A DNA stretch of 32,000 nucleotides from Candidatus Minimicrobia sp. QA0096 (GTDB taxonomy: Bacteria > Patescibacteriota > Saccharimonadia > Saccharimonadales > Saccharimonadaceae): the NCBI RefSeq assembly GCF_963967315.1, contig NZ_OZ017288.1, positions 510,001-542,000 on the forward strand, written 5' to 3'. The stretch's first letter is position 1, and every line of letters starts with the position of its first letter. The notes under the pieces were generated by a model, which saw only the letters and a program-made list of their open reading frames with translations, was not told the DNA's origin and did no database searches. Positions 1 to 17,457 of the stretch are shown in pieces. Position numbers and translations under genes: made by a program.

Positions 1-952
1 CGTAGTTGTAATTTTTATCAAACCCACTGTCGTTCAAAATCGTTGTTACAAACGCGCCACAATCGACACCGCCGCCATAACACGTACCGCCAGTAAATCT
101 GTTCTCACTTTTTGCCTTTTCTATAGCTTTTTCGTAATCAGGTTTTTTATCTGTACGAACCCTTTTTTCTGGCCAGGCATAACGTTTGACATAGTCGATA
201 AAGTCGCCGCCACCGTTTGATGAAGAGCATCCTCCTCCACTTCCGCCTGTACCATTAAATCTTTCATAGATTTTTTGTGCGGCGGCACCGCGTATATTTT
301 TAACGTCATCTTTTGTCATGGCTGATTTTTCAAAATCGTCATGCCAAAAAACAGTGGCGTCATCAACTGTCTTCAGGGTTTTTAATAATTCCCATGAATT
401 TGAAGCGGTACCAAATCCACGAGCAGTAACGGGTCTTTCTGTCCCCTCTTGCACTAAATACTCTAATTCGAAGATCAATAGCTTGTCGTTGTCTTCTACC
501 GGAATAGAATCGACCATACCCTTGTCGTTAGGCGCGCCACCATACTCTTGGCTGTAATATTTTTTTAACTCAGACGGTATTTTATTAGCTATAAGCGTTC
601 GCCTTCCGAACGTCCACTGGGCAAGTCCCCAACCTCCAGACCCCCATCCTTGACCTACTTCGTGTCTGGTAGGACTAAATCCTGACTCTGCCTGAATATT
701 AGCCATCACGCCAGCTGTTTGTTCGGCGCTTAATCCTGCGTTGCGTAGATATCCCCAAATCTTTTCTTGGTTATCAGATCCTGATACTCCATTAGAAGAT
801 GATCCGGAACAAGTTGTTGAATCATTTTCTTTATACCAAAGAATATCGTTTGTTACATATGAATCGGGATATCCTGCCGCCAAAGATACTGGCTGCATAG
901 TAATAGCAAAAGATATAGCAAAGCAAAGAGCGATAGACAACTTTTTATACAT
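1..952 (-). CDS. Secreted peptidoglycan hydrolase, 3' end cut by window edge (lysozyme-like domain followed by NlpC/P60- or CHAP-like cysteine peptidase domain)
   Basis: Absent from the ORF track because no stop codon lies inside the window. Hand translation of the minus strand from ATG at 952-950 gives MYKKLSIALCFAISFAITMQPVSLAAGYPD (Sec signal). It continues LSAEQTAGVMANIQAESGFSPTRHEVGQGWGSGGWGLAQWTFGRR, a motif I associate with phage-tail-type lysozyme domains. After a GGSGGG linker comes GGVDCGAFVTTIL, the G-x-D-C nucleophile context of papain-like amidases. The start overlaps the stop of the upstream ORF by 8 nt. Confidence 0.7.
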   Translation of the reverse strand, partial: MYKKLSIALCFAISFAITMQPVSLAAGYPDSYVTNDILWYKENDSTTCSGSSSNGVSGSDNQEKIWGYLRNAGLSAEQTAGVMANIQAESGFSPTRHEVGQGWGSGGWGLAQWTFGRRTLIANKIPSELKKYYSQEYGGAPNDKGMVDSIPVEDNDKLLIFELEYLVQEGTERPVTARGFGTASNSWELLKTLKTVDDATVFWHDDFEKSAMTKDDVKNIRGAAAQKIYERFNGTGGSGGGCSSSNGGGDFIDYVKRYAWPEKRVRTDKKPDYEKAIEKAKSENRFTGGTCYGGGVDCGAFVTTILNDSGFDKNYNY

Positions 953-1394
953 CAGATCGATTCCTCTTATATTCGTTTATAATATCTGCAGGAACACCAA
1001 TATTTTTTAAGGCGTCTGGGGATTTTCTATCATTAACGCCTGTTATGACTGAATTATTTCTTAGGACTGCATACGTGTTGTAGGTAGATTTGAATTTCTC
1101 GCTATAAATTTCTAGTGCAACCAACTTAAATTCGCCCTGCTCTTTTACTATTGAATACTTTTTTAATTCACGGTTGCCGTAGGTACTAGAGGTAGAATTT
1201 AGTAATTCGGTAATAACTTTCTGTTCTGATGATTGCTCGTGAGTATTATTTTGATTCTCGTTAGTGTTTTGGGATGATGACAGAATAGTTGTGTATTGAT
1301 TGCTGTCAGGGTTTTTAATAATAAGGAAGGTTGCCGTAATACTTACTAAAAATAATACGGATGATATTAGGATAACTTTATTTTCTTTATTCAT
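945..1394 (-). CDS. Small bitopic membrane protein, unknown function (T4SS-locus associated)
   Basis: ORF track 945..1424. The preferred start is MNKENK at 1394, which forms a TAATG 1-nt overlap with the stop of the upstream 990-aa gene. It has a single N-terminal TM helix (VILISSVLFLVSITATFLII) followed by an N/Q/S-rich linker and a roughly 90-aa C-terminal domain. No recognisable motif. Confidence 0.55.
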   Translation of the reverse strand: MNKENKVILISSVLFLVSITATFLIIKNPDSNQYTTILSSSQNTNENQNNTHEQSSEQKVITELLNSTSSTYGNRELKKYSIVKEQGEFKLVALEIYSEKFKSTYNTYAVLRNNSVITGVNDRKSPDALKNIGVPADIINEYKRNRSDV

Positions 1395-4366
1395 TAGACC
1401 TTCCTCGCATACTCCCAGTGCCATTGTTCGGGGTTACTCCCACCCGGCTCAGCCCAAGCGGGATGTACATAACCGTATTTGTGGGCGTTAGCTTTTAGCC
1501 AATTATATGTAGAAGACCCAAACGCGCCAACTTCAATATCTGCAGCAAGTCCCCAGCCGTGGTTTGATACACACGGGGGAGCTGGAGCTGCTCTTGATCC
1601 TAGCTCTTTACTATATCTAATTTGCGTTGCACAATCTCGATACGCTTCATTAATTATTAAGTCTGACCCGTTATCGGCTTTATACGCTTTATTCATTTCT
1701 TCCATGGCCGCTGCAGCTTTCTTATTCATTTTATTGCCTGACGAGAAAGATAGAGTTTGCAATTCTGAATCTGGAATTCCGCCGTTGCTATGACCTCCCC
1801 ATCCGTCTTGTTGCGCCTCTTCTAATTGAGGTTCGCCAACTGCCTCGCCATTGTCTGGAGCTTTAGCCGTGGTTGAAGGAGCGTCTTCTTCGTCATCTTC
1901 GCCATTGATTGATTGGGCAATTTGGAAATCAATTAATAATACTGACATTGCGGAAAGCTTTCTATCGTCGTATTGCTTAGCGGAATTTTCAGCTCCGAAA
2001 GATTGGTCAGTAATATCTTTGCCTTCACTATCTTTATATGTTGGTGCGGTAGATGATGTTGTTTGTGTTGAATCTGATGGCGCTGTACACCCGCCATTAC
2101 TAAACCAGTAGCTTCCGGTGCTGGCATCTCCACAGCCTTCTACAAAGTCATGAAGAGGAGTATCTTTAACTATGTATCCATTATTCATGAGATCGGATAT
2201 ATCTGCGCCATCTGGAATGTCCATATCTTTCTGTATCCATCCTTCATTTTCGGCAATTTGAATAGCCTCCTCTACTGACATGTTTGCCTGGCTATTGGTT
2301 ATGCCAGTACACGGTAATCCTGCCATATTCACGGCTGGATCTTCGGATGATCCACTTCCCATATAAAAGTCTTTTGCGTATCCACAATATTTATCAGAAT
2401 ACATACCGCTTGCTGCTTTTGCAGTAGATGAATAAGATAGTGCCATAGAAGGTAGCCTGAGAATGTTAGACAGCATTGCTACTGGAGTTTTACTATAAGT
2501 TCCATTAGCTATCATCATATTGCCCATATTATGGAATATACTACCTAAGAATGTATATCTACTGGACGTATCGAATGGACTTAATGAGGCTATATCCATT
2601 TCTTTTTGGAATTCTTCGTTTGCTATTTGGATTCCGTTGAATTCTGCTAATTGACTCATCTTAAGCCCGGGGAGCATTTGTCCCATAGATCCTGCCGAAA
2701 AGAACGCCGCCGCACCAACGCCGAGTGCATCTCCCAGGTCTTTATATTGAGCCTTGTCTGGCGTAAGGAGGCTTTTTGCTAATTCTGTGAGGATATTTTT
2801 TACTTGCTCGCCAACTGCATATTCGAGTACTTTTTTAATCACTTCAGATAGCGCTGCCTTACCTACCCAACTAACTATCGCACTTATACCGCCAGTAGAG
2901 GCTGAGACTGCTGCCTCTACTGCCATAGAGGCATACATGGCTACTGGACTTAATATATAATCGCATACACCTTCAGTGGCTTCTTTAGCTTCATTAAAGC
3001 CTTGGATTATAGGATTCGTAGCTACTGAATATCCAGGAATGTAGTTTTTTGCAATTCCAGGCTTGTCGTTATTTACGCCCATTGCTGCTAGTAAATACGG
3101 AGAATCTAATGCCGATCCTTCGGCGTTATCGGACCCTTTCATCTTTCCTCTTTCGGTTAGCATAGTGCCGATGGTTTCCATCGTTTCTTGAGAGAATCCA
3201 CCACCACTAGAGTCGAGTCCAGAAGCCTTAGCTTGTGATCCAGGGGATAGGATAACATCCATAACTATGCCTAATAGTGGAGCTAACTGAATTGCTGCTA
3301 CACCTGACGCAATAAGATTTGGGATTTTTACTACAGCACAAGCCCCTGCACTAATAGCATAAGCTAGGCCACCTTTTTTCAGCTTACCACCCAACTTATC
3401 AACACCTTTGCTAATATTTTTACTAGCACTACCAGCTTCAAACTTTGGTAATTTTTCTTTAAATTTCTCTCTTTTTTCTTTTATTCCAAGTTTTTTATCA
3501 ATTTTTGAAATGGCACTATTTCTTTTAAGGTTGAATTTACCGTAAAGCCTACTTATGTGTTTTCCTGTCCAGGCGCGGAAACGCATTTTCATTAGACCGG
3601 TTCTGCCATAGACTTTACTGGCAATTTTACGATTCTCTTTTTTGAGCAATTCGTCTTTTAATTTCGACGACTCAATAGGTTTCCCATCGTTTAATCCTTC
3701 CACCTTCCAGTGAGTTGGATTTTTTTCTGGGTATCCTCTTCCTTTTATGTCCATTTCTTTGCCATCAGCATCAACTGGAATTAATCCGGATTTCTTGAAT
3801 CTCTTAAGAGCTTTGTTGGATAATCTTCCTGTTTTGCATTTAATTTTCTTATTATTGCAAATTCCTGCATCATCACCAGATTCAAAAATTCTGTTTATTA
3901 TTTTTTTCATTCTGGTTTCTTTAACAACTGAAGCGGAGTCGTTTTTCCAGGTGAAATTCTCCATAATATTTTGTAACATTGTCGCTGGACTAAGAAATAT
4001 TCCCAGAATTCCACCGCCCAGTCCCAGTATTCCAGCAATAACTGCAATTGGTCCGCGTTTTTTCAGTAAAGATTTGAACGTTACTGGACTTTTCTTTTTT
4101 CCCGCAGACGGCTGATAAAAACCGTTGCCTGGAACAGAAGATTCTTGGTCATTAACAGCAGTGCTGGCGGAATCATTTTGATTAGGATTCAAATCCGAAT
4201 CTTTATTATCAAACTGAGATTCAAGGTCATTTATGGCATCTTTTTCGCGATCACTTAACTCTGACCCACTGTCAGAACCAGCCGAGATTTGATCAAACTT
4301 AGCCTGCTCAGCAGGATTTAACCTGCTGTCAGTTTCGGAATCCGTCGTGTAATCAACTCGTGCCAT
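1394..4366 (-). CDS. Large membrane protein with C-terminal peptidase M15 (VanY / D,D-carboxypeptidase-like) cell-wall hydrolase domain
   Basis: 990-aa ORF with an acidic disordered N-terminus and a TM helix (GPIAVIAGILGLGGGILGIFL). The central region carries several hydrophobic segments. The C-terminus reads INEAYRDCATQ...SNHGWGLAADIEV...EQWHWEY, matching the S-x-H-x-x-G-x-A-x-D and E-x-W-H zinc-binding signature of M15B/VanY peptidases. Confidence 0.8.
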   Translation of the reverse strand: MARVDYTTDSETDSRLNPAEQAKFDQISAGSDSGSELSDREKDAINDLESQFDNKDSDLNPNQNDSASTAVNDQESSVPGNGFYQPSAGKKKSPVTFKSLLKKRGPIAVIAGILGLGGGILGIFLSPATMLQNIMENFTWKNDSASVVKETRMKKIINRIFESGDDAGICNNKKIKCKTGRLSNKALKRFKKSGLIPVDADGKEMDIKGRGYPEKNPTHWKVEGLNDGKPIESSKLKDELLKKENRKIASKVYGRTGLMKMRFRAWTGKHISRLYGKFNLKRNSAISKIDKKLGIKEKREKFKEKLPKFEAGSASKNISKGVDKLGGKLKKGGLAYAISAGACAVVKIPNLIASGVAAIQLAPLLGIVMDVILSPGSQAKASGLDSSGGGFSQETMETIGTMLTERGKMKGSDNAEGSALDSPYLLAAMGVNNDKPGIAKNYIPGYSVATNPIIQGFNEAKEATEGVCDYILSPVAMYASMAVEAAVSASTGGISAIVSWVGKAALSEVIKKVLEYAVGEQVKNILTELAKSLLTPDKAQYKDLGDALGVGAAAFFSAGSMGQMLPGLKMSQLAEFNGIQIANEEFQKEMDIASLSPFDTSSRYTFLGSIFHNMGNMMIANGTYSKTPVAMLSNILRLPSMALSYSSTAKAASGMYSDKYCGYAKDFYMGSGSSEDPAVNMAGLPCTGITNSQANMSVEEAIQIAENEGWIQKDMDIPDGADISDLMNNGYIVKDTPLHDFVEGCGDASTGSYWFSNGGCTAPSDSTQTTSSTAPTYKDSEGKDITDQSFGAENSAKQYDDRKLSAMSVLLIDFQIAQSINGEDDEEDAPSTTAKAPDNGEAVGEPQLEEAQQDGWGGHSNGGIPDSELQTLSFSSGNKMNKKAAAAMEEMNKAYKADNGSDLIINEAYRDCATQIRYSKELGSRAAPAPPCVSNHGWGLAADIEVGAFGSSTYNWLKANAHKYGYVHPAWAEPGGSNPEQWHWEYARKV

Positions 4367-4383
4367 ATTTTCTCGCTATTTTT

Positions 4384-6243
4384 CTACACCGCTCCGTAGC
4401 CGCCGATCGGCGAATCTGACGGTTTTATTTGTTGCGATACAGGATTTGTATTGATCAAATTATATTCGGTATCACTAGCCTGAATTTGGATGTGAACGTG
4501 ATTTTGTCCAGCAAAGAATAATCCTTGCCCAACTGGGAAATTGGCTAGTCGTTTCTGCTCTTCATCTGTCAATTTAAACACTTGCGCCAAAACGTCAACG
4601 GCGCTGGCAGACTGTTTCAAAAGTAGCTGCATTGAGGAGTTGGAAACGATTGCTCGCCCCATTTTACTTCCGACGAAATCTTCCACGTCCTGCGTGATAG
4701 TCGTTAAGCCTAATTGATATTTGCGGGCGCGCTTGGCTAACGAGAATAAGAAATTGGCAGAATCGTCATATTTCATCAATTGCCAAGCCTCGTCAACAAT
4801 CAGCATACGTTTCCTCTGGTCGGTACGCGTAATATTCCAGATATGGTTAAGAACAATATACATCGCCGTTGGTCGCAGTTCATCTTCCAAGTCGCGAATG
4901 TTAAAGACAACCATATTATTATTAATATCAATATTACTCTGTTGTGAAAATATTCCAGCAAACGTTCCAGAGGTAAATTTGCGAAGTCGCTGAGCCAGAC
5001 TTGGGCCAGTTCCGCCCATATGAAGCAAAGTGTCGTATAGGTCGGAAATTGTCGGTGGCGTAGAATTGTGCGTCAATGGATCCGAAGTAATACCGACGCG
5101 CGCGTAGGTGTCAATCAATGCTTGATCAATATCAGCTTCTTCTGCTGGTGATAATCCTGCCATGACTTGCCCGCCGGCTCCTACTCCTGCGCCGCCCAGC
5201 ATTTGTCTGAGTAGTCCGTGTAGTGTAACTAAGTTAGCTCGCAGTGCGTCATCTGCTTCATCAGTGTCAATAACACGCGGCAAATCAAACGGATTGATTC
5301 TCGTGTCGCTACTTAAACTCAATCGAATATAACTGCCACCAACCGCGTCGCATAGTTTTTGGTACTCGTTTTCTGGGTCGATAATTACAATATCAGCCCC
5401 GACCATCATACTTCTTAAAGCTTCCAGCTTAACGGTAAATGATTTACCAGCACCAGACTTAGCGAACACGACCATATTGGCGTTTTCCAGAGAGAATCTG
5501 TCAAAAATCACCAAGCCATTATTATGCATATTAATTCCGTAAAGCACGCCCTTATTATCTGTTAAATCGGCTGAAGTGAATGGAAAGCTGGTTGAAATTG
5601 CGCCAGTGTTCATGTTGCGGCGAATCTGTAGTTCATCAGTCAATTGTGGAATAGAGCTATTCAATCCCTGCTCCTGCTGGCTGGAAGCTACTTTTGAGAA
5701 CACCAATTGTTGACCAAAAATAGTTTCAATTTTATGCTGGATGAAGTTTAGCTCGTCCAAGCTGTCGGCGTAAAGCGTAATATATAAGCCGTAGCGGAAG
5801 AACTTTTCGGCGCCAATCTGCAATTGATCGCGCAATTCTTCGGCGTCTTGCAAAGCCGCTTCCAAGCCTGGATCGCGCACCTTTCCTTTTTCCATGTTGA
5901 TATTCATGGTTGCTTCCAACTGAGTAACTTTTTTACGCAGGTTATTCAGGACAATTTGCGTATCGACTGGATAAATAAACATACTAATATCCAGCACTTC
6001 ATCGATGTTAATGATTGAGCTAAGCCAGCCGGTGTAGATTTGGCGAGGATAGCCATAAACATACATTGTGCGACCGTATTTTGAGCCAAGTCGGAAATGG
6101 TCAGAATGAAGCTCAATACTACTTGGCGCGATAAAATCACGCAAAGTTCGAACACCAGTTAAGAAGGCTTGTTCGACTTCGGCTTGCTCCCTTGCTCGTT
6201 GTTGAGCAGCAATATCAACGGCGTCTAATTTCTTCTTCGCCAT
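4384..6243 (-). CDS. virB4: VirB4/TrbE/PrgJ-type T4SS ATPase
   Basis: 619 aa. Walker A is VVFAKSGAGKSFTV and Walker B is RMLIVDEAWQLM. The N-terminal region (IAPSSIELHSDHFRLGSKYGRTMYVYGYPRQIYTGWLSSI) has the pattern seen in Gram-positive VirB4 homologues. Its ATG forms a TAATG overlap with the upstream gene stop at 6243. Confidence 0.9.
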   Translation of the reverse strand: MAKKKLDAVDIAAQQRAREQAEVEQAFLTGVRTLRDFIAPSSIELHSDHFRLGSKYGRTMYVYGYPRQIYTGWLSSIINIDEVLDISMFIYPVDTQIVLNNLRKKVTQLEATMNINMEKGKVRDPGLEAALQDAEELRDQLQIGAEKFFRYGLYITLYADSLDELNFIQHKIETIFGQQLVFSKVASSQQEQGLNSSIPQLTDELQIRRNMNTGAISTSFPFTSADLTDNKGVLYGINMHNNGLVIFDRFSLENANMVVFAKSGAGKSFTVKLEALRSMMVGADIVIIDPENEYQKLCDAVGGSYIRLSLSSDTRINPFDLPRVIDTDEADDALRANLVTLHGLLRQMLGGAGVGAGGQVMAGLSPAEEADIDQALIDTYARVGITSDPLTHNSTPPTISDLYDTLLHMGGTGPSLAQRLRKFTSGTFAGIFSQQSNIDINNNMVVFNIRDLEDELRPTAMYIVLNHIWNITRTDQRKRMLIVDEAWQLMKYDDSANFLFSLAKRARKYQLGLTTITQDVEDFVGSKMGRAIVSNSSMQLLLKQSASAVDVLAQVFKLTDEEQKRLANFPVGQGLFFAGQNHVHIQIQASDTEYNLINTNPVSQQIKPSDSPIGGYGAV

Positions 6244-7127
6244 TATGACCTTCCTCCTCTCGGTGATGGACCAGTTCCCTTAGTTACGTAAGTGGTCGTA
6301 AGCTCGCTTGGATCAATGTCCTCTAACGATTCACGTGACGACGTGTCGGGATTATATGAAGTGTAGAACAGCTCACCCAGTTGTCGGGTGTTCAATTGCC
6401 AGCTTTTTACGCCCATTTGGAATAGACCATTCATAACCGAATCAATGCGGTTTTTAATTTCATCTTTTGCTTTGGTATAGGTAACTTGGTCAATTTTTGT
6501 TACGGTTGCCTCTTTTTTTCCGCTGAAGAAGCTATTGAATAATCCCTTAGTCTGTTGTTTGAAGGCATTTTCCTCGCCAGCTGGATAATATGGAACGACA
6601 ACATAAAAACTCTTATCCATAATGTTTGCCTCTTGTGCCAGAATATCAATAAAATCCATATAATCATCCATTAGGACATTGAGGAGCATATTGTCTTGAT
6701 TGCGGCGAATTTCAGCCAATCTGTCCAGATATGGGCCAATGTCTACGCGGCGTGAACGGATAAGAACTTGAATTGGGAAATATAGAGAGTTAATAAAGTT
6801 TTGATAACTGAACTCAATTCCCTCTCTTTCGCGTGAACTCATAAGGTCGAAGTTGATCGATTCGCATTCCACTACTGCCCGAAAACTGCCATCGCTCATG
6901 ATGATCATATTTTCGCGCATTTCAGAGAAAAGCAGCGTATTCTGGGTGCTAATTGGTCCTTTTTGCTTCTTGTCGTCAGGGGTTTTATCTGGAGATGGCG
7001 CGGTTGGACTTGGTCCCGAACCAATTGCTGCTGATGGCTGCTGAGAGACACCAGGAAGAGCCGCATTGGTTTGCGGAACCTGCTGATAAGATTGTTGATT
7101 TTGTAACTCTGGTTGCATAAACCCCAC
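6243..7127 (-). CDS. Soluble T4SS-locus protein of unknown function (possible VirB4 N-terminal-domain-like paralog)
   Basis: 294-aa ORF whose track start is GTG at 7127. The ATG at about 7118 (MQPELQ) is preceded by AGGTGGGG and is probably the real start. The N-terminus is Q/P-rich and no TM helix is present. The core MIIMSDGSFRAVVECESINFDLMSSREREGIEFSYQNFINSLYFPIQVLIRSRRVD resembles the non-ATPase N-terminal domain pattern of VirB4-family proteins. That similarity was judged by eye only. Confidence 0.55.
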   Translation of the reverse strand: MGFMQPELQNQQSYQQVPQTNAALPGVSQQPSAAIGSGPSPTAPSPDKTPDDKKQKGPISTQNTLLFSEMRENMIIMSDGSFRAVVECESINFDLMSSREREGIEFSYQNFINSLYFPIQVLIRSRRVDIGPYLDRLAEIRRNQDNMLLNVLMDDYMDFIDILAQEANIMDKSFYVVVPYYPAGEENAFKQQTKGLFNSFFSGKKEATVTKIDQVTYTKAKDEIKNRIDSVMNGLFQMGVKSWQLNTRQLGELFYTSYNPDTSSRESLEDIDPSELTTTYVTKGTGPSPRGGRS

Positions 7128-8039
7128 CTAACGTAGTGAAATCACCACTTCCTCATCTGATAATTTATTTTCTTGCTGAATTCGATTTGCCTCACGCGCA
7201 ATCGTTTCAATCGAGAGGTCGCGGTTATTTGCCAGTTCTATTATAGCAGGTGGCACCTCGTTTACGCTAGTTTGCGGCGTGGTTGTCGGCTGAGTTTGAG
7301 CTGGAGTGTTCGTGACAGGTAGTCCGGACACTGGATTTAATACGGATTGACGCATTGTTGGGTACGGATTCATTTGTAGTGGTGCGGCTGGAGTAGGATT
7401 ATCTGGTTGAGATGGTTGAGGTGTTTGCGTAGGAGGCGGTGTAGCAGATTGCCCTGTTTGCATCTTTTGGATAACTTCTTGTCGTCTACGAACATCTGAC
7501 TGATTTATTAAGTGATTGATATTTTGCGCCGTAGCACTATTTTCATCCAATATGTCGTTAGCCGCTTGCCCTTCGTTGAATAAGTCGGCACGCATCGAGC
7601 TATTCGGATTATTGACGCCACGAATTGACCAACCTTGACTATCTACCAAATTCGCCAAATATGACAATCTTCGCTGAACTTCGGCTTGATCGTAATTATT
7701 TCCGTAAGTCTTCTCCTCGACTTTTGGCGCGATAACTTCGACTAATCTTTCAATTCCATCAGGCTGCCATAGACGTTTTTTTGGTTTTAACATAAAAGAA
7801 ATGACTGCTGCCAAATAAACTTCCATTGGCTGATCTTTTTTAAGCGGTAAAGCCAGCGCTCCAAAGAATAAAATTATCGGCACAGGAATTATTGCCAAAG
7901 GTAGTAAAATTGTACTCAAACCGTACGCGATAGCGATTCCGATAACAGCTATAATTAAGAACACAAACTGTCGGAAACTAAACGGCCCGAGCAGTTTGTC
8001 CTCCGCCTCGACATCTTGAGGGACTTTATACACCGACAT
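7128..8039 (-). CDS. PrgI/TcpE/VirB3-like membrane protein with long C-terminal extension
   Basis: The N-terminus reads MSVYKVPQDVEAEDKLLGPFSFRQFVFLIIAVIGIAIAYGL. A second TM helix and KKDQPMEVYLAAVISFMLKPKKRLW follow. This is the pattern of PrgI-family (VirB3-like) proteins encoded just upstream of VirB4 in monoderm T4SS. An extra 200 aa or so includes a P/T/Q-rich tract. Confidence 0.65.
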   Translation of the reverse strand: MSVYKVPQDVEAEDKLLGPFSFRQFVFLIIAVIGIAIAYGLSTILLPLAIIPVPIILFFGALALPLKKDQPMEVYLAAVISFMLKPKKRLWQPDGIERLVEVIAPKVEEKTYGNNYDQAEVQRRLSYLANLVDSQGWSIRGVNNPNSSMRADLFNEGQAANDILDENSATAQNINHLINQSDVRRRQEVIQKMQTGQSATPPPTQTPQPSQPDNPTPAAPLQMNPYPTMRQSVLNPVSGLPVTNTPAQTQPTTTPQTSVNEVPPAIIELANNRDLSIETIAREANRIQQENKLSDEEVVISLR

Positions 8040-8069
8040 ACTGCTTATATTATATCAAAAATATGATGA

Positions 8070-10601: not shown

Positions 10602-10659
10602 CTGGGTTTATATTAGCATTTTTGATGGAAAAAGTCAAGAGAGCGTATGAAGCATGTGC

Positions 10660-13644
10660 CTAGTTCCCTCGTCGCCTAGAATCCTCCAATGCCTTTCTTA
10701 CATCTTCTTGAGATGTAGCGATAATTATTTTCTCCCCAGAATTACTATTATTCTGTTGGTTATTTTGTGGTGATTGTTGAGGACTGCTACCTTGGCTGTT
10801 CTGTTGAGAATTAGAGGAGGATGTATTCTGTGGCGTATTATGGGCAACCACTCCGTGAGCATTTAACGCTTCGGATATTGCTTGATTTATATTTTTCGCA
10901 GTATTTGGATTTGATATGGCAACTTCTCCTGCTTTTATAAATGCATCCTTAGCTTGCTGACTTCCACTAGTAGTAATAGCATCGGATAACCATTTGGTTG
11001 CTGCGCCATTTTGTACTAAGTGTTCCGCCTGTAGATTTCCAGACGCGGCATTATTTACTGCCATATTAGATAGGTCTTGCGTACTACCAACCTCGTCATT
11101 AAGGATAGCATCTCCTAATCCATTTCCTATGATATTATTATCCTTCTTTGCGTATGCAGCTTTAATTGCCCGTTGTTTTATGGAGTTGTCTGTGCCTTTT
11201 AGACTACTCAATACATCCATACGTTCTTTAAAACTACCATTAGCCATAGTATGGTCAATAGCCGCCGCGCGCATAGCCTTTGATTCTACAGTTGTGCCGT
11301 TGGCTATATTGGCTATCTTGTCAGATGTCATACCTTGCAACATTGTGGATGCATTTTCAACGTCGCTTTCGAACGCCTTAGCTACAGTTGCGCGGGCGCG
11401 CGCTCCACCTTTATCCCAACCCATGAATTGACCGAGTGGACTATTGTCCCTCCACGTCGCAAATTTACCCGTTCGCCTGCTTGCGCGTTTTCTATTCATG
11501 AAGTCTGAGTATTTTCTTTTTGTATCGCCAATAACAGAATTGTCAACACGTCCTTTTGCTGCGCCTTTTATATTTCCAGCGAATCGACTATGCGCATTAG
11601 CACCCATTCTGCCTATCTTTGCGCCAATATTGCCCAACGAATTTAAGGAGCTCTGTAGTACGAAAGGTGTGGCGCCTAATGGCAAAATAGACGCTGCCAA
11701 GCCTGCAAACTGCATAGTTATCGCAGTATCATTCGGGTCGCTTGTGGCTGTTGTCATTAATATTGCCCCTGCTAATTTACCAGCTCCATACAAAAGGGAT
11801 ATTATAGGAAAAACCATTAATAACCCCCTAAACATTGATACCCATTTTTTGAATAAACTTTCGGTGTTTGGCAGGAGCCAAGCTGCGAATGCTAGGGGCG
11901 CAATTGATATTAGGAGAACTATAGCTGCTTGTCTAACTATTAGTATGACAAGCACAACAAGTAGCACTAACATTAGAGATAGTAATGTTGGTACACTGAC
12001 TGCAAGCGCTGCAAATAGCACTGTTCCTGTAAGAACTAGAATGCCAGCAACTGCTGCGCCGAGACCGCTCGCTATTGCTGAATTTGAAGACGATCCACCA
12101 ACTCCAGACACCGCTCCTTCAAGAGCTTCTTTTAGTGTAAAGCCAAGGATATTGGATAAGTCGACGGCTAATTGACATATATAAAACGATAGGTTTACTA
12201 ATACAGCTCCCACTATTAATTTTGGTAAGATTTTTTTAATGCCGTAGTTACTTATGCCGATACTACTGACTTGTGAGAAAATTACCCATAAAAATAGCAA
12301 TACAAATATGACGTTTGCTATATCACGAAAGAAGTTCCATGCCTGTTTTGCTCCTACCGCATCAGACCCCTCATCGAAGATAGCAGGTCTAATATTAAGA
12401 AACTGTGATATTACAGAATAAGAAGCATCAGCAATTCCCCCCATAAAAGTCATTAAAGGACAAATAAGCCATCCCATTCCATCAATACCACACGAATTTT
12501 TTTCCTCTTCTTCTCCGCCGCCGTCACCTTCCGACGGAGTTTCTATTTTAGCAGACTGACCTTGCTTACAGGCGTTTATTTTTTCTGGCTGATTTTCATA
12601 TTTTGTGTAGCAATACTTAGGATCATCCTTATGATTTATACCGCGTCTGCAGGCGGCTTTTAGATTTTCGTCTGCCAGCCCTACACACGCGGTGTCTGTG
12701 ACTGACTGCTTTAGGGCTTCTTGATATTTTGGCGCTGACTCCACTAGGCGTTGATATATATTCATACACTGCCATTCAGAAATGTTTGCGTCATAATGAT
12801 TCTGTGGCCATTCACGGTTATTTGATCCGCCCACATTATAACCCTGCCCGTCGCCAGGTAGGTAATATGAGTTAGTTGCATTTCCGTTACCATCTATATT
12901 TGGTATTTCCCAATCTTTTGAGCTGTGTCGTTGAGGTTGAGGATTGTCGTCTTTTACGCAACCTTTTATCATGGACCTCGAAACCAGATATTTTATGCTA
13001 GGATCGGAGTTTTCTATACCATTTTTATAACCTGATAAATTTGTTAGTACTTCAAATATCTTTCCTTTTGAATATACATTAGCGTCAACTTGTCTATCAT
13101 CCTTCCCTCCTGCAGACTTCTTTTTTTTGCCAAATGCACCACTTCCATTTATACATTCGTCTTCGGACAGGGTGTAGTTAGTGCCTCTCCTGTATCCTAT
13201 TTTGCAAAGCAATACCTCTACGGCGGAGGATCTTCCTTGTGGCTGTATGTTGAATTGACTAACAGCTGTACTCATAAGTTCAGCTGAGTTGCAATCAAAA
13301 TATCCTCCCGAGCTATTGTATCCTGTAAAGCCTGGAAAAGTTCCTACGTAAGCTCCGTCGCCAACATTATTAAATATTTTTCCCTTTTTCAGCTCCTCTA
13401 CGTTGCTGTTGGGCGCCTTACTTCCTGCACGGACAAAACATGTATCTAATGCGCGCGCATAAACATAGAACTTATATTTTTCTTGAGTACTGAGGCCATC
13501 AAAGTATCCATCAGCAAATGCGGGTAAAGAGGTTAATAGTGTAGAAATTGGTAATATAAATAAGGCGCTCACGCACAAATATAAAACTATACTCTTAAAG
13601 ACGTTTCTACGACTAAACCCACTCATAAACATAAACACCTTCAT
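10660..13644 (-). CDS. Extended VirB6/TrbL-like polytopic membrane protein, paralog 2, with large Cys-rich ectodomain
   Basis: 994 aa. A signal peptide is followed by an ectodomain of about 350 aa with 12 Cys. Then come SCGIDGMGWLICPL, a multi-TM core (VRQAAIVLLISIAPLAFAAWLLPNTESLFKKW), and a long tail ending in a Q/N/S low-complexity tract. The real start may be the third Met (MSGFSRRN, ATG at 13626), 9 nt after an AAGGTG Shine-Dalgarno. Confidence 0.65.
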   Translation of the reverse strand: MKVFMFMSGFSRRNVFKSIVLYLCVSALFILPISTLLTSLPAFADGYFDGLSTQEKYKFYVYARALDTCFVRAGSKAPNSNVEELKKGKIFNNVGDGAYVGTFPGFTGYNSSGGYFDCNSAELMSTAVSQFNIQPQGRSSAVEVLLCKIGYRRGTNYTLSEDECINGSGAFGKKKKSAGGKDDRQVDANVYSKGKIFEVLTNLSGYKNGIENSDPSIKYLVSRSMIKGCVKDDNPQPQRHSSKDWEIPNIDGNGNATNSYYLPGDGQGYNVGGSNNREWPQNHYDANISEWQCMNIYQRLVESAPKYQEALKQSVTDTACVGLADENLKAACRRGINHKDDPKYCYTKYENQPEKINACKQGQSAKIETPSEGDGGGEEEEKNSCGIDGMGWLICPLMTFMGGIADASYSVISQFLNIRPAIFDEGSDAVGAKQAWNFFRDIANVIFVLLFLWVIFSQVSSIGISNYGIKKILPKLIVGAVLVNLSFYICQLAVDLSNILGFTLKEALEGAVSGVGGSSSNSAIASGLGAAVAGILVLTGTVLFAALAVSVPTLLSLMLVLLVVLVILIVRQAAIVLLISIAPLAFAAWLLPNTESLFKKWVSMFRGLLMVFPIISLLYGAGKLAGAILMTTATSDPNDTAITMQFAGLAASILPLGATPFVLQSSLNSLGNIGAKIGRMGANAHSRFAGNIKGAAKGRVDNSVIGDTKRKYSDFMNRKRASRRTGKFATWRDNSPLGQFMGWDKGGARARATVAKAFESDVENASTMLQGMTSDKIANIANGTTVESKAMRAAAIDHTMANGSFKERMDVLSSLKGTDNSIKQRAIKAAYAKKDNNIIGNGLGDAILNDEVGSTQDLSNMAVNNAASGNLQAEHLVQNGAATKWLSDAITTSGSQQAKDAFIKAGEVAISNPNTAKNINQAISEALNAHGVVAHNTPQNTSSSNSQQNSQGSSPQQSPQNNQQNNSNSGEKIIIATSQEDVRKALEDSRRRGN

Positions 13645-13668
13645 TTAATCACATATGAAGGTGTTTAT
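13631..13668 (-). promoter_or_regulatory. Perfect 14-bp stem / 10-nt loop hairpin covering the annotated start and putative RBS of VirB6-like paralog 2
   Basis: ATAAACACCTTCAT (13631-13644) is the exact reverse complement of ATGAAGGTGTTTAT (13655-13668). The element lies 24 nt downstream of the lipoprotein stop and is not followed by a strong U-tract. Confidence 0.5.
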
Positions 13669-13691
13669 GCAATAGTTGCTAAGTCTGGAGT

Positions 13692-14807
13692 TTAGTCTTT
13701 TTTAATATTGTCCCAAGCATTCTGTATCTCAGGGATTTCGTATGCTGGTACGTCTTCACCGTTTATAGTGAATAGCATCGGGCTTCCTTGTTTTTGATAA
13801 TCATGAGGTACACTGATTCCTCGGAAATCAATTATCACAGGAGCTACTCGAATCTTTACTGTGCGGTCTGATACCGCATCAAGGGATTGCTCCTTTGACG
13901 GGTCAAAGTTTAGATTTTCGGCACTCCCCCTGTCAGTGTTAACAATGGTCATTATTTCTTCAACCCCACCATCTCCTGTTAGATAAGCTGCTTGATATTT
14001 AGGAATCCAACCACCGTAATTTAGACCGTTGCATCGTGTAAGATCTCCTTCATCAGAACAAGGGTCTGCGTTATTAGCGTTGTTTCGGACTAGCTTTGGA
14101 TAATTACCGTCTTTTCCTGTAGACTCAAATATTTTATTTGGCTGTCCATCTAGTGGAAATAGGTCGAAAACGTTATAGTCAAGATATCTTTCCTCAGGGT
14201 ATTCTTTATACTCCTCAAAAAAGTCATATATCACCTTTTGAGCACTTCCTATAGCCATACTGCTTAGGTAGGCGTCGCGCATCTTGTCTGCCTCTTCCAC
14301 TCTGCCTTCGTCGACTAGTTTAAAGTAGGATTTGGCCATCAAATTAATACTGTAGGCGCTGTGCTCTCCGATATTTTTCATGACTCCAGGGAGTTCTTCT
14401 TTTGTTGTGATTATCTGACCAAACTCATCAATATCTAATTTTGCAGATTCGCTGTTAGCATGCATGTTTGTATAATTAATGAAGGCTGCTCTCTTGTCGT
14501 TCGTGTCTTTTGCATTATCCAAAGAGTCTAGAAGATTATCCAGTCCCTCAATTTCTGGGATTTCTCTAGCCTCTGGTGATGGAGAACTTGTCTCTTCTAC
14601 TGAAGGTGTAGAATCTTGAGTTTCCTGCGAGGTAGGTGTTGTATCTGGAGTTGGCTCACTGTAGCTTTCACCACAGGCTGACAACGGAGCTACTGAAGCT
14701 AACAGTGCTGCCGCTGTAGCGATGCCCTTTAAGAACTTTTCTTTAGTTGTAGTTGAAAGACTTGTTTTTGAATCGCTTGGGTTAAATTGTTCACGATTTC
14801 GAACCAT
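13692..14807 (-). CDS. Predicted lipoprotein, unknown function (first gene of the T4SS-like operon)
   Basis: The track ORF 13692..15053 runs through a tRNA and a terminator, so the start was moved to Met83 (ATG at 14807). The N-terminus MVRNREQ...KEKFLKGIATAAALLASVAPLSAC|GES has a lipobox (LSAC). A GAGGAAGGA element lies upstream. An S/T/P/E-rich linker follows, then a globular domain of about 300 aa with no motif I recognise. Confidence 0.6.
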   Translation of the reverse strand: MVRNREQFNPSDSKTSLSTTTKEKFLKGIATAAALLASVAPLSACGESYSEPTPDTTPTSQETQDSTPSVEETSSPSPEAREIPEIEGLDNLLDSLDNAKDTNDKRAAFINYTNMHANSESAKLDIDEFGQIITTKEELPGVMKNIGEHSAYSINLMAKSYFKLVDEGRVEEADKMRDAYLSSMAIGSAQKVIYDFFEEYKEYPEERYLDYNVFDLFPLDGQPNKIFESTGKDGNYPKLVRNNANNADPCSDEGDLTRCNGLNYGGWIPKYQAAYLTGDGGVEEIMTIVNTDRGSAENLNFDPSKEQSLDAVSDRTVKIRVAPVIIDFRGISVPHDYQKQGSPMLFTINGEDVPAYEIPEIQNAWDNIKKD

Positions 14808-14968: not shown

Positions 14969-15046
14969 TGGCGCGCTCGACCGGATTCGAACCGGCGATC
15001 TCCTCCGTGACAGGGAGGCGTGATAGGCCAACTTCACTACGAGCGC
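14969..15046 (-). tRNA. tRNA-Asp (anticodon GUC), CCA encoded
   Basis: Minus strand: GCGCTCG TA GTGA AGTTGGCCTA TCAC G CCTCC CTGTCAC GGAGG AGATC GCCGG TTCGAAT CCGGT CGAGCGC G CCA. The cloverleaf folds cleanly. Coordinates may be off by 1 nt. Confidence 0.9.
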
Positions 15047-15112: not shown

Positions 15113-15139
15113 TTGACTATTTTACAATTTAGGTATAAG
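15113..15139 (+). promoter_or_regulatory. Putative promoter for the pilin array
   Basis: TTGACT, a 15-nt spacer (short), then TATAAG, ending 10 nt before the ATG at 15150. This would give a very short or absent leader. Confidence 0.3.
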
Positions 15140-15149
15140 AGAAAATTTT

Positions 15150-15521
15150 ATGGCAAAAAGAAATATTGTAATCAGTATATTCATCGCAACAGTAATCGCA
15201 GGGAGCGTTTTTATACCCAAAGTAGCTTTGGCTGCCGGCTGCGGCGGCGCGGAAACCTCTGTTATTTCTTGTGAAGGCGAAGGTAGTACGGCAATTATCA
15301 ACATAATCAAGCAAGTTATTAAAATCTTAACCGCTGGAGTTTTGGTCGCGGCGGTTGGTGCTGTTATATATGGCGCATTCTTATATACCACTTCTGAGGG
15401 TAGTCCAGATAAGATAAAAAAAGCACGTGAAGTCTGGACGAATACTGTTATTGGGATAATAATGTTTGCGTTTATGGTGGCAATTACTAACTTTATTATT
15501 CCAGGAGGAGTTTTCGATTAA
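15150..15521 (+). CDS. VirB2/TrbC-like T4SS pilin paralog A (Cys-pair class)
   Basis: 123 aa. A Sec signal (cleavage near ALA|AG) precedes a short exposed segment with two Cys (GCGGAETSVISCEG). Two hydrophobic helices are separated by a TSEGSPDKIKKAR loop, which is VirB2/TrbC topology. The core is shared with the six other paralogs. Confidence 0.7.
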   Translation: MAKRNIVISIFIATVIAGSVFIPKVALAAGCGGAETSVISCEGEGSTAIINIIKQVIKILTAGVLVAAVGAVIYGAFLYTTSEGSPDKIKKAREVWTNTVIGIIMFAFMVAITNFIIPGGVFD

Positions 15522-15949
15522 TGAAGAAAATTATAATAGCAATGTCTTTAATGATTATAGGGTCGTTTGGGGCGAGCGTAACTTTCCCGGGTATTTCTTT
15601 TGCGGACGATGCATGTTCTAATAAGGGGAAGATTTTAACATTAAAACCATGGTATAGCGGCTTGACTAATAGTGACTGTTCCCTTAAAAATCCAGGCACA
15701 GATACTAATTCTCAAGCTAACTATATTTGGAAAATCGCGCTTAATATCGTTGATGATTTGCTGCAGCTTATCGGTTACACGACTGTTGGATATATTATGT
15801 ACGGTGGATTCTTGATGATGACCAGTAACGGTGCTCCAGACAAGGCTGCTCATGGGCGAAAGACTATTATGAGTGCCGCGATCGGTCTGGTTATCGCCCT
15901 AGCTTCTGTTGCGTTGGTTAACTTTATATCATCAAAGATAGGGGTATAA
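15521..15949 (+). CDS. VirB2/TrbC-like T4SS pilin paralog B (Cys-pair class, longest variable region)
   Basis: 142 aa. A signal peptide (SFA|DD) precedes a variable segment with two Cys (ACSNKGKILTLKPWYSGLTNSDCS). The two-helix core has the loop TSNGAPDKAAHGR. The ATG overlaps the previous stop (TAATG), and AGGAGGAG lies upstream. Confidence 0.7.
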   Translation: MKKIIIAMSLMIIGSFGASVTFPGISFADDACSNKGKILTLKPWYSGLTNSDCSLKNPGTDTNSQANYIWKIALNIVDDLLQLIGYTTVGYIMYGGFLMMTSNGAPDKAAHGRKTIMSAAIGLVIALASVALVNFISSKIGV

Positions 15950-15950
15950 A

Positions 15951-16235
15951 ATGAGATATATGGAATTTTTTGCTGGATTATTAGGAAAAGCAGATGATCT
16001 TGGCGTGCCACAGAATAACGATGTAGATATTATGAAGTTTGTTAATTTGGCGCTCTGGGTGGCTGGTGTCGTGGCTGTTATTGTGGTGATTATTGCTGGA
16101 ATAAATTATTCCCTGTCTTCCGGCGATCCCGCTAAGACGGCCAGCGCAAAGAATGCTATTTTATATTCAGTTATTGGTTTGGTTATTATTGCTAGTGCGA
16201 TTGCTATAACAGGTTATATTATAGGAAAGGTTTAA
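15951..16235 (+). CDS. VirB2/TrbC-like pilin-core paralog C (no obvious signal peptide)
   Basis: 94 aa. It retains the two-helix core (LALWVAGVVAVIVVIIAGINYSLSSGDPAKTASAKNAILYSVIGLVIIASAIAI) but lacks a hydrophobic Sec leader. The start could also be the internal Met4. Confidence 0.6.
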   Translation: MRYMEFFAGLLGKADDLGVPQNNDVDIMKFVNLALWVAGVVAVIVVIIAGINYSLSSGDPAKTASAKNAILYSVIGLVIIASAIAITGYIIGKV

Positions 16236-16236
16236 A

Positions 16237-16617
16237 ATGAAGATTTTTACAAAAATCCTGACGGCTGGAATACTAATAATTGGGCTCCTTGGCGTGTTTA
16301 CTCCAGCGGTATCCGCGGCTAACGGTATTGATATTTGCTCAAATGGAAATGAAAACTCTGTCTATTGTAAAAATAAGGGCAGTGGCGAAACTCAAGTGAA
16401 CGGTATTATAAAAACTATCGTTGAAGTTTTACTTACGGCCGTTGGTGCTATTTCGATTATTATGATAGTTATTGGCGGTATTATGTTTGCACTTTCCAGC
16501 GGTGATGCTCAGAAAGCTGCAAAAGCCAGGAATACTGTTTTATATGCTGTCGTTGGCTTAATAGTTTCTATATTCGCTTCAGCGATTGTTAATTTTGTAT
16601 TTAATAGGTTTAATTAG
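16237..16617 (+). CDS. VirB2/TrbC-like T4SS pilin paralog D (Cys-pair class)
   Basis: 126 aa. A signal (VSA|AN) precedes ICSNGNENSVYCKNKG and the core GAISIIMIVIGGIMFALSSGDAQKAAKARNTVLYAVVGLIV. Confidence 0.7.
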   Translation: MKIFTKILTAGILIIGLLGVFTPAVSAANGIDICSNGNENSVYCKNKGSGETQVNGIIKTIVEVLLTAVGAISIIMIVIGGIMFALSSGDAQKAAKARNTVLYAVVGLIVSIFASAIVNFVFNRFN

Positions 16618-16625
16618 GAGAAAGT

Positions 16626-17003
16626 ATGAAAAAATCAATAATATCAATAGCAATTATGACCTGTGCGGTATTTGGAACATCAGTTTTATCTACTGCTTCC
16701 CTGCCAGGTAGCGCTTCTGCCCAGGTATCTGATGGTATTAATACCGCTACAACATCGGAAATGAAAGGTAAAAGTATTGACGGTGATAAAGGTCTAATAA
16801 AAACAGTAGTTAATGTTTTGCTTTGGGCTGTAGGTATTCTGTCTGTTATTATGATTATTTTTAGTGGATTTCGCTATATTACTTCGGCTGGCGACGCTTC
16901 AAAGACAAAATCTGCTCAGAGTACGCTCACCTATTCAGTGGTTGGACTAATTGTGGCTATTATGGCATACGCGATCGTCAATATGGTTACAAATCGACTA
17001 TAA
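16626..17003 (+). CDS. VirB2/TrbC-like T4SS pilin paralog E (Cys-free class)
   Basis: 125 aa. AGGAGAAAG RBS, signal (ASA|Q), and core GILSVIMIIFSGFRYITSAGDASKTKSAQSTLTYSVVGLIVAIMAYAIVNMV. Confidence 0.75.
   Translation: MKKSIISIAIMTCAVFGTSVLSTASLPGSASAQVSDGINTATTSEMKGKSIDGDKGLIKTVVNVLLWAVGILSVIMIIFSGFRYITSAGDASKTKSAQSTLTYSVVGLIVAIMAYAIVNMVTNRL
16963..16989 (+). repeat. 27-nt near-identical segment shared by pilin paralogs E and F (second copy at 17411-17437)
   Basis: TGGCATACGCGATCGTCAATATGGTTA versus TGGCATACGCAATCGTCAATATGGTTA, 26/27 identical. Both encode the C-terminal (M/L)AYAIVNMV segment. Confidence 0.8.
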
Positions 17004-17019
17004 TAAATCCATAATTAGT

Positions 17020-17048
17020 TTTACAAATAACAGATAAAAATGTATAAT
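17020..17048 (+). promoter_or_regulatory. Putative internal promoter for pilin paralog F
   Basis: TTTACA, a 17-nt spacer, then TATAAT, within the only sizeable gap (76 nt) in the array. An AAGGAG RBS follows, 9 nt before the ATG at 17080. Confidence 0.4.
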
Positions 17049-17079
17049 AGTAATATCATTAAACAAGGAGAAAATAACA

Positions 17080-17457
17080 ATGAATAAATTAAAATTAATC
17101 TTGGCGGGACTACTGGTAGTACCAACTGTTGCTTTGGCTGTAGCCCCAGCTGCAAGCGCTGAAGGTGATTTTACCTTAACTAATGGCGTAAATAGTGCAA
17201 GAGGAGAAGGTGTGAGTGACAATACTGCAAGCCCTGAGTCTCTAGTTAAGCAATTTGTAAATATATTCTTGTTTGCCGTCGGTGCATTAAGCGTTATTAT
17301 GCTTATCTGGGGCGGTATCCGATACACTACTTCAGCTGGTGACAGCAATAAGGTTACAGCTGCTAAGAATACAGTTTTGTATGCAATTGTCGGTTTGGTG
17401 GTTGCAATTTTGGCATACGCAATCGTCAATATGGTTATTGATAAGTTTAAGGGTTAA
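17080..17457 (+). CDS. VirB2/TrbC-like T4SS pilin paralog F (Cys-free class)
   Basis: 125 aa. Signal (ASA|E), then core GALSVIMLIWGGIRYTTSAGDSNKVTAAKNTVLYAIVGLVVAILAYAIVNMV. Confidence 0.75.
   Translation: MNKLKLILAGLLVVPTVALAVAPAASAEGDFTLTNGVNSARGEGVSDNTASPESLVKQFVNIFLFAVGALSVIMLIWGGIRYTTSAGDSNKVTAAKNTVLYAIVGLVVAILAYAIVNMVIDKFKG

Follow-up and report, generated by a model that had tools for sequence, protein, structure and literature searches.

The conserved type IV secretion locus of Saccharibacteria in Candidatus Minimicrobia sp. QA0096 and the relation of its pilins to those of monoderm plasmid systems

Described Saccharibacteria systems and the locus of QA0096

A type IV secretion system (T4SS) was first noted in TM7x and across the Saccharibacteria, where its small genes were read as a secreted array (McLean 2020, Cell Rep). 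In Southlakia epibionticum, the cluster SEML1_0006-0019 was reported to have a Gram-positive-type composition with pilins and without a coupling protein or relaxase (Wang 2023, Cell). Transposon sequencing (Tn-seq) in co-culture found the T4SS genes, including the pilins, essential in S. epibionticum, with SEML1_0006-0011 and 0013-0019 scored essential (ES, later outgrowth samples) and SEML1_0012 not (Wang 2023). A survey of Patescibacteria delimited a VirB4 clade sister to MPF-FATA, with TrsD, PrgI, VirB6 and 441 pilin arrays of 2-11 genes, and with coupling protein and relaxase absent or unlinked in most (Quinonero-Coronel 2025, Microb Genom). The Saccharibacteria system has been presented as a new T4SS type (FEMS Microbiol Rev 2025 review). 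No other T4SS is known to be essential to its own bacterium, and this one probably underlies host exploitation by these ultrasmall epibionts, as established by others (2020-2025). The locus studied here is a T4SS locus at positions 1-17457 of a 32,000-nt stretch of Candidatus Minimicrobia sp. QA0096 (NZ_OZ017288.1, positions 510,001-542,000); the whole stretch is called the window.

The locus is the conserved chromosomal T4SS of Saccharibacteria, and almost every gene has its orthologue in SEML1_0006-0019 and in the TM7x locus. By lineage it is a monoderm (MPF-FATA-related) T4SS, with no outer-membrane parts, coupling protein or relaxase in the locus. The system is already described, reviewed and shown essential in a cultured relative, and the window holds another member of it. 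An initial annotation made from the window's letters had mentioned T4SS-like genes of Saccharibacteria/CPR genomes, and the reference to Saccharibacteria was borne out by the VirB4 (identical to WP_338503936.1 of Candidatus Minimicrobia sp. QA0096) and by the published work (McLean 2020; Wang 2023). Its description of the apparatus as essentially uncharacterised did not stand, as the composition was given by McLean 2020, Wang 2023 and Quinonero-Coronel 2025, the essentiality by Tn-seq, and both were followed by the FEMS 2025 review. Sequence identity places the source as Candidatus Minimicrobia sp. QA0096, a saccharibacterium of the Nanosynbacter group; the closest species representatives were Nanosynbacter genomes (87-93% nucleotide identity).

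The T4SS of S. epibionticum ML1 had the same gene order and strand as the window and near-identical gene lengths (S. epibionticum and window, respectively: 612 and 619 aa for VirB4, 293 and 294 aa for the TrsD-like protein, 300 and 303 aa for PrgI), with a giant protein of ~1000 aa and two VirB6-like proteins of ~850-1090 aa. Both had a lysozyme hydrolase, six divergent pilins followed by Hsp20 and ComF, and one unlinked extra pilin, which in S. epibionticum is SEML1_0024 ('pilin', scored NE, non-essential) and corresponds in kind to a seventh pilin of the window. Unlike S. epibionticum, the window had an extra 149-aa gene between the lysozyme and giant genes and a tRNA-Asp gene in the divergent region. 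A 371-aa lipoprotein gene lay upstream of the VirB6-like pair in the window, whereas S. epibionticum had the NTF2-like SEML1_0012 between its VirB6-like genes. Compared with the Patescibacteria clade of Quinonero-Coronel 2025, there was no difference of substance: TrsD next to VirB4, PrgI, VirB6 (VirB6-like proteins in the window) and the lack of a relaxase near virB4 were common to both, and pilin arrays averaged ~25% identity in the clade and ranged from 23 to 44% (pairwise) in the window.

In a contig collection with one genome per species, 567 candidate stretches encoded a VirB4 relative, and 80 loci (L001-L080) were inspected for synteny. The order VanY-domain giant, VirB4, TrsD-like, PrgI, VirB6-like protein or proteins, divergent pilins, Hsp20 and ComF was kept across the 80 Saccharimonadia loci, so that a synteny comparison proposed with the initial annotation came out in its favour. 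VirB4 was 83-99% identical in amino acids across these loci, environmental lineages included, and the other T4SS genes diverged much faster, identity falling to 55-66% for the TrsD-like protein and 44-51% for PrgI in the more distant loci. The same housekeeping genes flanked the locus across the class Saccharimonadia.

In distant relatives as in the window, comF lies two genes past the pilin array, after hsp20. This constancy would fit a ComB-like DNA-uptake machine that scavenges host DNA together with the neighbouring ComF and the competence system, and loci of class ABY1 also link the T4SS with comF, recG and radA (Quinonero-Coronel 2025). That function is very unlikely for this locus: the comF neighbour of S. 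epibionticum, SEML1_0021, was non-essential and the T4SS essential (Wang 2023), and deletion of comEC in S. epibionticum abolished competence and left viability unaffected (FEMS 2025).

Nine co-oriented genes occupied the minus strand (positions 2-14807; open reading frame (ORF) listing and frame check), with intergenic gaps of -8 to +58 nt. Six pilin genes lay divergently on the plus strand (15150-17457), with gaps of -1 to +76 nt. The intervening region contained tRNA-Asp(GTC) (14969-15046, minus strand; ARAGORN), and the ORF, frame and tRNA scans thus agreed with the initial picture of nine tightly packed minus-strand genes facing six pilin genes across a tRNA-Asp gene. A terminator-like hairpin (14958-14944, minus strand; terminator scan) stood directly 3' of the tRNA-Asp, and its position right after the tRNA suggests transcription of the T4SS operon from a separate promoter, downstream of the tRNA gene. 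A replication origin at the divergent promoter was considered and rejected: the cumulative GC-skew minimum fell at ~15 kb, but no cluster of DnaA boxes was present there, and 19 one-mismatch sites were scattered.

The gene at the left edge (2-952) was cut by the edge of the window; its full-length orthologues in relatives had 405-406 aa. Two further co-oriented genes (203 and 216 aa), missed at first, followed the lysozyme gene in relatives (L002:16554-17818 and L007:16587-17851, both plus strand), and the operon therefore probably extends past the left window edge. Neither gene had a Pfam match in these relatives. They were positional counterparts of SEML1_0005 (PEGA-like) and SEML1_0004, both scored essential.

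None of the scanned ORFs of the 32-kb window encoded a coupling protein, relaxase or integrase, and none had a Pfam or NCBIfam match to the VirB7, VirB9 or VirB10 outer-membrane core, which upheld the initial statement that VirB7/9/10 are absent. No repeats were found in the window, and composition was uniform (~38-46% GC). These results, together with the shared housekeeping flanks across the class and the restriction of relaxases to 103 Patescibacteria genomes, rarely near virB4 (Quinonero-Coronel 2025), make it extremely improbable that the locus is an active or recently decayed integrative and conjugative element (ICE) that transfers DNA. Membership of VirB4 in the CD1110 conjugal-transfer family, the conjugation-associated families of PrgI and TrsD, and the presence of conjugative clusters among the closest plasmid relatives speak for such an element. 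The remainder of the window was housekeeping: Hsp20, ComF, RlmH, tRNAs, VanZ, a class-I aminoacyl-tRNA synthetase, FemAB, TsaD, two Mur ligases and GroES. The two Mur-ligase-family genes (27081-28517, plus strand, and 28474-29763, minus strand) were convergent, and their 3' ends overlapped by ~44 nt.

The pilin array and its counterparts on monoderm plasmids

All seven pilins of the window (the six of the array and the seventh) matched PF18895 (T4SS_pilin) above its gathering score. For the six array genes, annotated initially as VirB2/TrbC-like pilins, E-values were 7e-7 to 7e-13, which sustained their assignment as pilins. All seven also matched NF045849, an NCBIfam model of Mycoplasma ICE pilin-like proteins (E 5e-4 to 8e-10). 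Hydropathy and alignment gave a common plan of a leader (not clear in pilin 3), a short variable segment, two transmembrane (TM) helices and a conserved charged loop, S-x-G-D-x-x-K.

Pilin 1 (123 aa; 15150-15521, plus strand; PF18895 7.2e-7; NF045849 4.6e-4) had a signal peptide, a short Cys-containing variable segment, a two-TM hairpin and a short charged loop. It was followed on the same strand by pilin 2 (142 aa; 15521-15949; PF18895 3.2e-8; NF045849 2.3e-6) and by pilin 3 (94 aa; 15951-16235; PF18895 6.9e-13), which had no clear N-terminal signal peptide and scored 38.3 bits against NF045849 (7.8e-10; cut-off 40). Pilin 4 (126 aa; 16237-16617, plus strand) matched PF18895 at 8.3e-10, TrbC at 0.0078 and NF045849 at 2.4e-9; pilin 5 (125 aa; 16626-17003, plus strand) matched PF18895 at 2.8e-8 and NF045849 at 1.2e-8; and pilin 6 (125 aa; 17080-17457, plus strand) matched PF18895 at 7.6e-12, TrbC at 0.0023 and NF045849 at 7.7e-9. 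The 76-nt gap before pilin 6, the sole sizeable gap of the array, contained an 11/12 match to a sigma-70-like promoter (17020-17048, plus strand).

The seventh pilin paralogue (135 aa; 20124-20531, minus strand; PF18895 6.5e-9), which the initial annotation had missed, lay 2.7 kb beyond the array, past the end of the locus at 17457, and was 44% identical to pilin 6; its presence may be a new detail. A 172-aa membrane protein without a family match (19570-20088, minus strand) followed it on the same strand. Searches for a sequence-level connection of the pilins with solved VirB2 pili, or with Agrobacterium VirB2 or VirB3, were null.

The N-terminal signal peptides, and the adjacency of the array to T4SS genes, have a different explanation in a proposal modelled on pertussis ptx/ptl (McLean 2020): the six small proteins would not be structural pilins but effector or toxin subunits, exported by Sec and secreted through the T4SS. 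The pair of TM helices at the C-terminus and the short charged loop joining them, the above-threshold PF18895 match of each protein and the identity of just 11% to Ptx S1 in the original proposal (McLean 2020) render this most unlikely, as do single-copy homologues in a conjugative-type cluster (Embleya) and in T4SS clusters of Firmicutes.

The plasmid-database VirB4 proteins most similar to that of the window came from Bacillota and Actinomycetota. Plasmids from Pontibacillus, Paenibacillus, Clostridium perfringens, Priestia and Embleya had above-threshold PF18895 pilins beside PrgI and VirB4, and all except the Embleya plasmid had a TrsD-like gene there as well. In Pontibacillus sp. ALD_SL1 (L082, NZ_CP062975.1, 351362-361354) the module comprised two PF18895 pilins, a TrbL-like protein (779 aa), PrgI/TraL, a TrsD-like protein, VirB4 (621 aa) and an M23/NlpC-P60 hydrolase (1050 aa). 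Its VirB4 was 37% identical to that of the window (4.5e-124) and its TrsD-like protein 31% (4e-29), and no relaxase or coupling protein was found within 12 kb of the module. Chemotaxis genes lie on one side of the module and flagellar genes on the other.

Paenibacillus polymyxa pSC2 and C. perfringens pJFP838A had an above-threshold PF18895 pilin just upstream of PrgI, TrsD-like and VirB4. In Priestia pFDU301A the PF18895 pilin lay ~0.5 kb upstream of a 116-aa ORF of no assigned family, followed by TrsD-like and VirB4. In the Embleya sp. NBC_00896 plasmid (NZ_CP108778.1; Streptomycetaceae), a PF18895 pilin ORF (L084:5520-6050, plus strand; 3.3e-20) that is missing from the PLSDB gene table immediately preceded the genes for TrbL_4, PrgI, VirB4, a coupling protein and a protein of the replication-relaxation family. 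TrsD-like genes were present in 44 plasmid records, 38 of which were typed non-mobilizable.

Two of these replicons call for separate remarks. The host of the Embleya plasmid belongs to the Actinomycetota, the phylum that Saccharibacteria parasitise. Priestia megaterium pFDU301A (L081, NZ_CP045273.1) is a 1.08-Mb 'plasmid' of 33% GC with a single annotated feature, in which VirB4 is broken into two frames; it ranked top in the plasmid VirB4 search (coverage x identity) and was the sole plasmid match to a window pilin. The replicon may have been poorly polished or wrongly assigned.

In Enterococcus faecalis pCF10, PrgF is an essential VirB2-like pilin proposed to polymerise on PrgH (VirB6), and candidate VirB2-like pilins were found in ~95% of 174 representative Gram-positive conjugative plasmids (ter Beek et al. 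2025, bioRxiv preprint). From this survey and from the PF18895 pilins in Bacillota and Actinomycetota plasmid loci, the combination of pilins with a monoderm channel appears to be normal for the monoderm T4SS lineage and no hybrid. The initial annotation had taken monoderm T4SSs normally to lack VirB2 pilins and had called the architecture hybrid, a claim that both lines of evidence speak against. The origin that such a hybrid would imply, namely that a monoderm channel secondarily captured diderm VirB2-type pilins in an architecture unique to candidate phyla radiation (CPR) bacteria, draws on sub-threshold matches to PF04956 (TrbC/VirB2) in five of the six array pilins (E 0.002-0.04). Co-option had also been left open by Quinonero-Coronel 2025, when pilins were thought absent from MPF-FATA. 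Such an origin is very unlikely in view of the plasmid loci, which include the plasmid VirB4 proteins most like that of the window, the match of all seven pilins to the Mycoplasma ICE model and the plasmid survey of ter Beek 2025. The survey of Patescibacteria had left the origin of the pilins open; here the PF18895 family was found in monoderm plasmid T4SS loci. A small increment over earlier work is this direct sequence-level evidence of a pilin family native to monoderm T4SS loci.

ATPase, membrane proteins and variable parts of the channel

The VirB4 ATPase (619 aa; 4384-6243, minus strand) matched NF045971 (CD1110 family) at 1e-114, above the 325-bit cut-off, spanning model positions 166-751 of 752, and also matched P-loop_TraG (8e-28) and AAA_10. 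Walker A (AKSGAGKS, aa 261-268) and Walker B (MLIVDE, aa 480-485) were present. Upstream in the operon, the TrsD-like protein (294 aa; 6243-7127, minus strand; position of SEML1_0009) matched NCBIfam TrsD at 4e-4, with weak matches to CD1110 positions 1-119 (0.003) and to positions 203-283 of VirB4_plasma, the Mycoplasma VirB4 model (3e-5). The three weak matches agreed, all pointing to the region absent from the 619-aa VirB4. In an 804-aa Brevibacillus VirB4, aa 38-140 aligned with aa 58-148 of the TrsD-like protein (E 0.008) and aa 230-770 with the 619-aa VirB4 (9e-87). From these N- and C-terminal alignments to a full-length VirB4, the VirB4 of the window is encoded as two polypeptides, the TrsD-like protein being the detached N-terminal domain and the 619-aa protein the C-terminal body. 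The resemblance of TrsD to the VirB4 N-terminus has already been remarked (Quinonero-Coronel 2025) and agrees with the split; its clear demonstration may be a new detail.

The PrgI/VirB3-like membrane anchor (303 aa; 7128-8039, minus strand; position of SEML1_0010) matched PF12666 at 4.3e-14 (53 bits; cut-off 27). Its anchor region (aa 5-90, with a hydrophobic stretch at aa 16-68) was followed by a P/Q/T-rich low-complexity extension of ~210 aa. The truncated edge gene (2-952, minus strand; position of SEML1_0006) encodes a VirB1-like exported cell-wall hydrolase with a signal peptide, a Phage_lysozyme2 domain (PF18013, 1.9e-25) and, at the C-terminus, the beginning of a Cys/His peptidase-like domain. 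This C-terminal tail was visible in the full-length orthologue (L002:15337-16557), where no Pfam model matched it. The 990-aa membrane protein (1394-4366, minus strand; position of SEML1_0007, essential) had TM segments and a C-terminal VanY-type D-Ala-D-Ala carboxypeptidase domain (peptidase M15; PF02557 6.4e-12 at aa 878-987). It is a large cell-wall-remodelling subunit, encoded next to VirB4, and it occupies the same position as the M23/NlpC-P60 giant of Pontibacillus. The profile searches proposed with the initial annotation thus placed VirB4, PrgI and the pilins above cut-off and recovered both hydrolase domains, all as first assigned, and left the VirB6/TrbL assignment below threshold.

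Two proteins had been called VirB6/TrbL-like. Protein 'a' (843 aa; 8070-10601, minus strand; position of SEML1_0011) had several TM-like hydrophobic segments between aa 188 and 431, a long C-terminal hydrophilic domain and no Pfam match. Protein 'b' (994 aa; 10660-13644, minus strand; position of SEML1_0013) had a Cys-rich ectodomain at its N-terminus (aa ~45-385), then a TM core (aa ~437-629) and a hydrophilic C-terminal domain, and matched TrbL at 7.5e-4 (19.8 bits; cut-off 25.9). They were paralogues (27% identical) with common invariant motifs, C..GxGW..CP and SPLAF..LLPNTE..FKKW. TrbL was matched by 7 of 34 homologues of the 994-aa protein (best 1.6e-5), and PF19590, probably a TrbL-like family, was precomputed on all 120 homologues listed for it; a literature look-up of PF19590 was empty. 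A profile search of PDB sequences to confirm VirB6 was null, and hhalign of the 994-aa protein against Ti VirB6 gave a short motif match alone (31 residues, Ti VirB6 aa 173-203, E 0.1). Orthologues had structure-based matches to TrbL/VirB6 with TM-scores of ~0.50-0.53, and SEML1_0011 was annotated by structure as 'Type IV secretion system protein' (Wang 2023). The VirB6 assignment draws in part on this published annotation: the polytopic paralogues and the structures of the orthologues supported the initial call, and the sequence matches did not reach threshold. An exact-sequence contig look-up of a 990-aa form of the VirB6-like protein gave no match.

The 994-aa protein was compared with its counterparts at L002, L007, L009, L011-L013, L015, L016, L018 and L020, in all of which VirB4 was 95-99% identical. 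Per 50-residue bin, the ectodomain (aa 1-350) was 30-90% identical to L013 and L016 and 2-46% to L009, L012 and L020. The TM core and C-terminal module (aa 400-850) were 84-98% identical to L009 and 8-56% to L013. The core and C-terminal module thus matched one genome set (L009, L012, L020) and the ectodomain another (L013, L016), and the 994-aa protein is a mosaic between species, probably a recombinational one, which may be a new observation. The 843-aa paralogue also had mosaic blocks, which were smaller.

The lipoprotein (371 aa; 13692-14807, minus strand), the first gene of the minus-strand operon, had a lipobox (LSAC) and, after it, a disordered linker rich in S/T/P/E. It was hypervariable, with 23-81% identity among genomes with 95-99% identical VirB4, and none of its 232 homologues had a Pfam domain or a name. 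Its AlphaFold2 (AF2) model (pLDDT 74.8, pTM 0.72) was a helical bundle plus a beta-sheet, and a Foldseek search of the PDB with it gave no fold match (best E = 1). A hypervariable lipoprotein whose predicted fold is unmatched in the PDB may be a further new detail. The variability of the VirB6-like ectodomain and of the lipoprotein points to a host-facing role, and these are probably the host-facing parts of the system. Set against the near-invariant VirB4, the mosaic VirB6-like protein and the lipoprotein are candidate host-specificity parts for experiments.

The 149-aa bitopic membrane protein (945-1394, minus strand) had an N-terminal TM segment and a predicted C-terminal alpha-beta4-alpha2 domain (AF2 pLDDT >90); the homologues listed were all at least 88% identical, so that no deep alignment stood behind the model. 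It had 100% identity with a hypothetical protein of Candidatus Minimicrobia sp. QA0096 and occurred in 16 of the 80 related loci, only in the Nanosynbacter group. Its modelled C-terminal domain gave only faint, non-significant PDB matches to NTF2, SnoaL and cystatin folds (E at least 0.05). A VirB8-like (NTF2-fold) identity was considered for the lipoprotein and for the 149-aa protein and rejected, the AF2 models having no significant PDB match.

Proposed conduit and comparison with known systems

The locus very probably represents the conserved monoderm-type T4SS of Saccharibacteria, acting as a pilin-based conduit to the host that is needed for epibiotic growth. For the parts, split VirB4, operon structure, conservation and lack of DNA-transfer genes in the locus reported above, family knowledge and the work on pCF10 would suggest the following mechanism. 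The pilins would be exported by Sec and seated in the membrane as two-helix hairpins. VirB4, in two polypeptides (the TrsD-like N-domain and the 619-aa body), would be tethered to the membrane by PrgI/VirB3, and would pull pilins from the membrane and stack them on the VirB6-like platform. The lysozyme/Cys-peptidase and the VanY-domain giant would open the peptidoglycan. A short conduit would then run from the epibiont to its actinobacterial host and carry proteins or other cargo not bound to a relaxase, outward or inward, as needed for epibiotic growth.

Several results weigh against this reading. The pilin profile had no match at E <= 10 among all PDB sequences, hhalign of the pilins against Agrobacterium VirB2 was null (probability 0.7%), and their PF04956 matches were sub-threshold, as was the TrbL match behind the VirB6 assignment. 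No VirB8-like fold was present in the models of the lipoprotein and the 149-aa protein. The evidence of essentiality comes from S. epibionticum, another genus, and neither a pilus on a saccharibacterium nor a substrate has been observed (Wang 2023; FEMS 2025). The absence of coupling protein and relaxase covers the 32-kb window, and other parts of the genome could encode a coupling protein.

A broader joint proposal is tentative and falls somewhat short of even chances. The Saccharibacteria system would be an expanded form of a wider monoderm lineage, relaxase-less, with split VirB4 and PF18895 pilins, that also occurs on mostly non-mobilizable Bacillota megaplasmids, and the pilins would have been co-inherited with the channel. 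In Nanosynbacter, moreover, the N-terminal ectodomain and C-terminal module of the larger VirB6-like protein and the lipoprotein would be reshuffled by interspecies recombination as host-range determinants.

The split-VirB4 megaplasmids of Bacillota resembled the window in that a PF18895 pilin preceded PrgI, the TrsD-like gene and VirB4 (~620-640 aa), and a peptidoglycan hydrolase was encoded downstream; Pontibacillus had a VirB6-like gene that separated the pilins from PrgI, and there the hydrolase came right after VirB4. They had one or two pilins, co-directional with the channel genes, whereas the window had six in a divergent array. They also differed in a smaller VirB6-like protein, a shorter PrgI (116 vs 303 aa), M23/NlpC-P60 instead of VanY/lysozyme hydrolases and a plasmid location.

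The Prg/Pcf system of pCF10 was like the window in PrgI, VirB4, VirB6 (VirB6-like in the window), a hydrolase of the cell wall and a small VirB2-like protein with two TM helices, a likeness by component type. Assembly of the pilin on VirB6 (PrgF on PrgH) is experimentally supported in this Gram-positive system (ter Beek et al. 2025). Unlike the window, pCF10 had a coupling protein, a relaxase, an adhesin, VirB8-like proteins, DNA transfer, a single pilin and an unsplit VirB4. The T4SSs of Rickettsiales/Anaplasma and of Bartonella were similar in belonging to host-dependent bacteria and in having tandem divergent pilin paralogues and several oversized VirB6 proteins (VirB6-like in the window), but they are diderm MPF-T systems with VirB7/9/10 and VirD4, and the resemblance is convergent and not locus-level homology. 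Special to the Saccharibacteria within the monoderm lineage are the expansion to a divergent six-gene array, the chromosomal location, the essentiality and the lack of DNA-processing genes, all of which have been published already.

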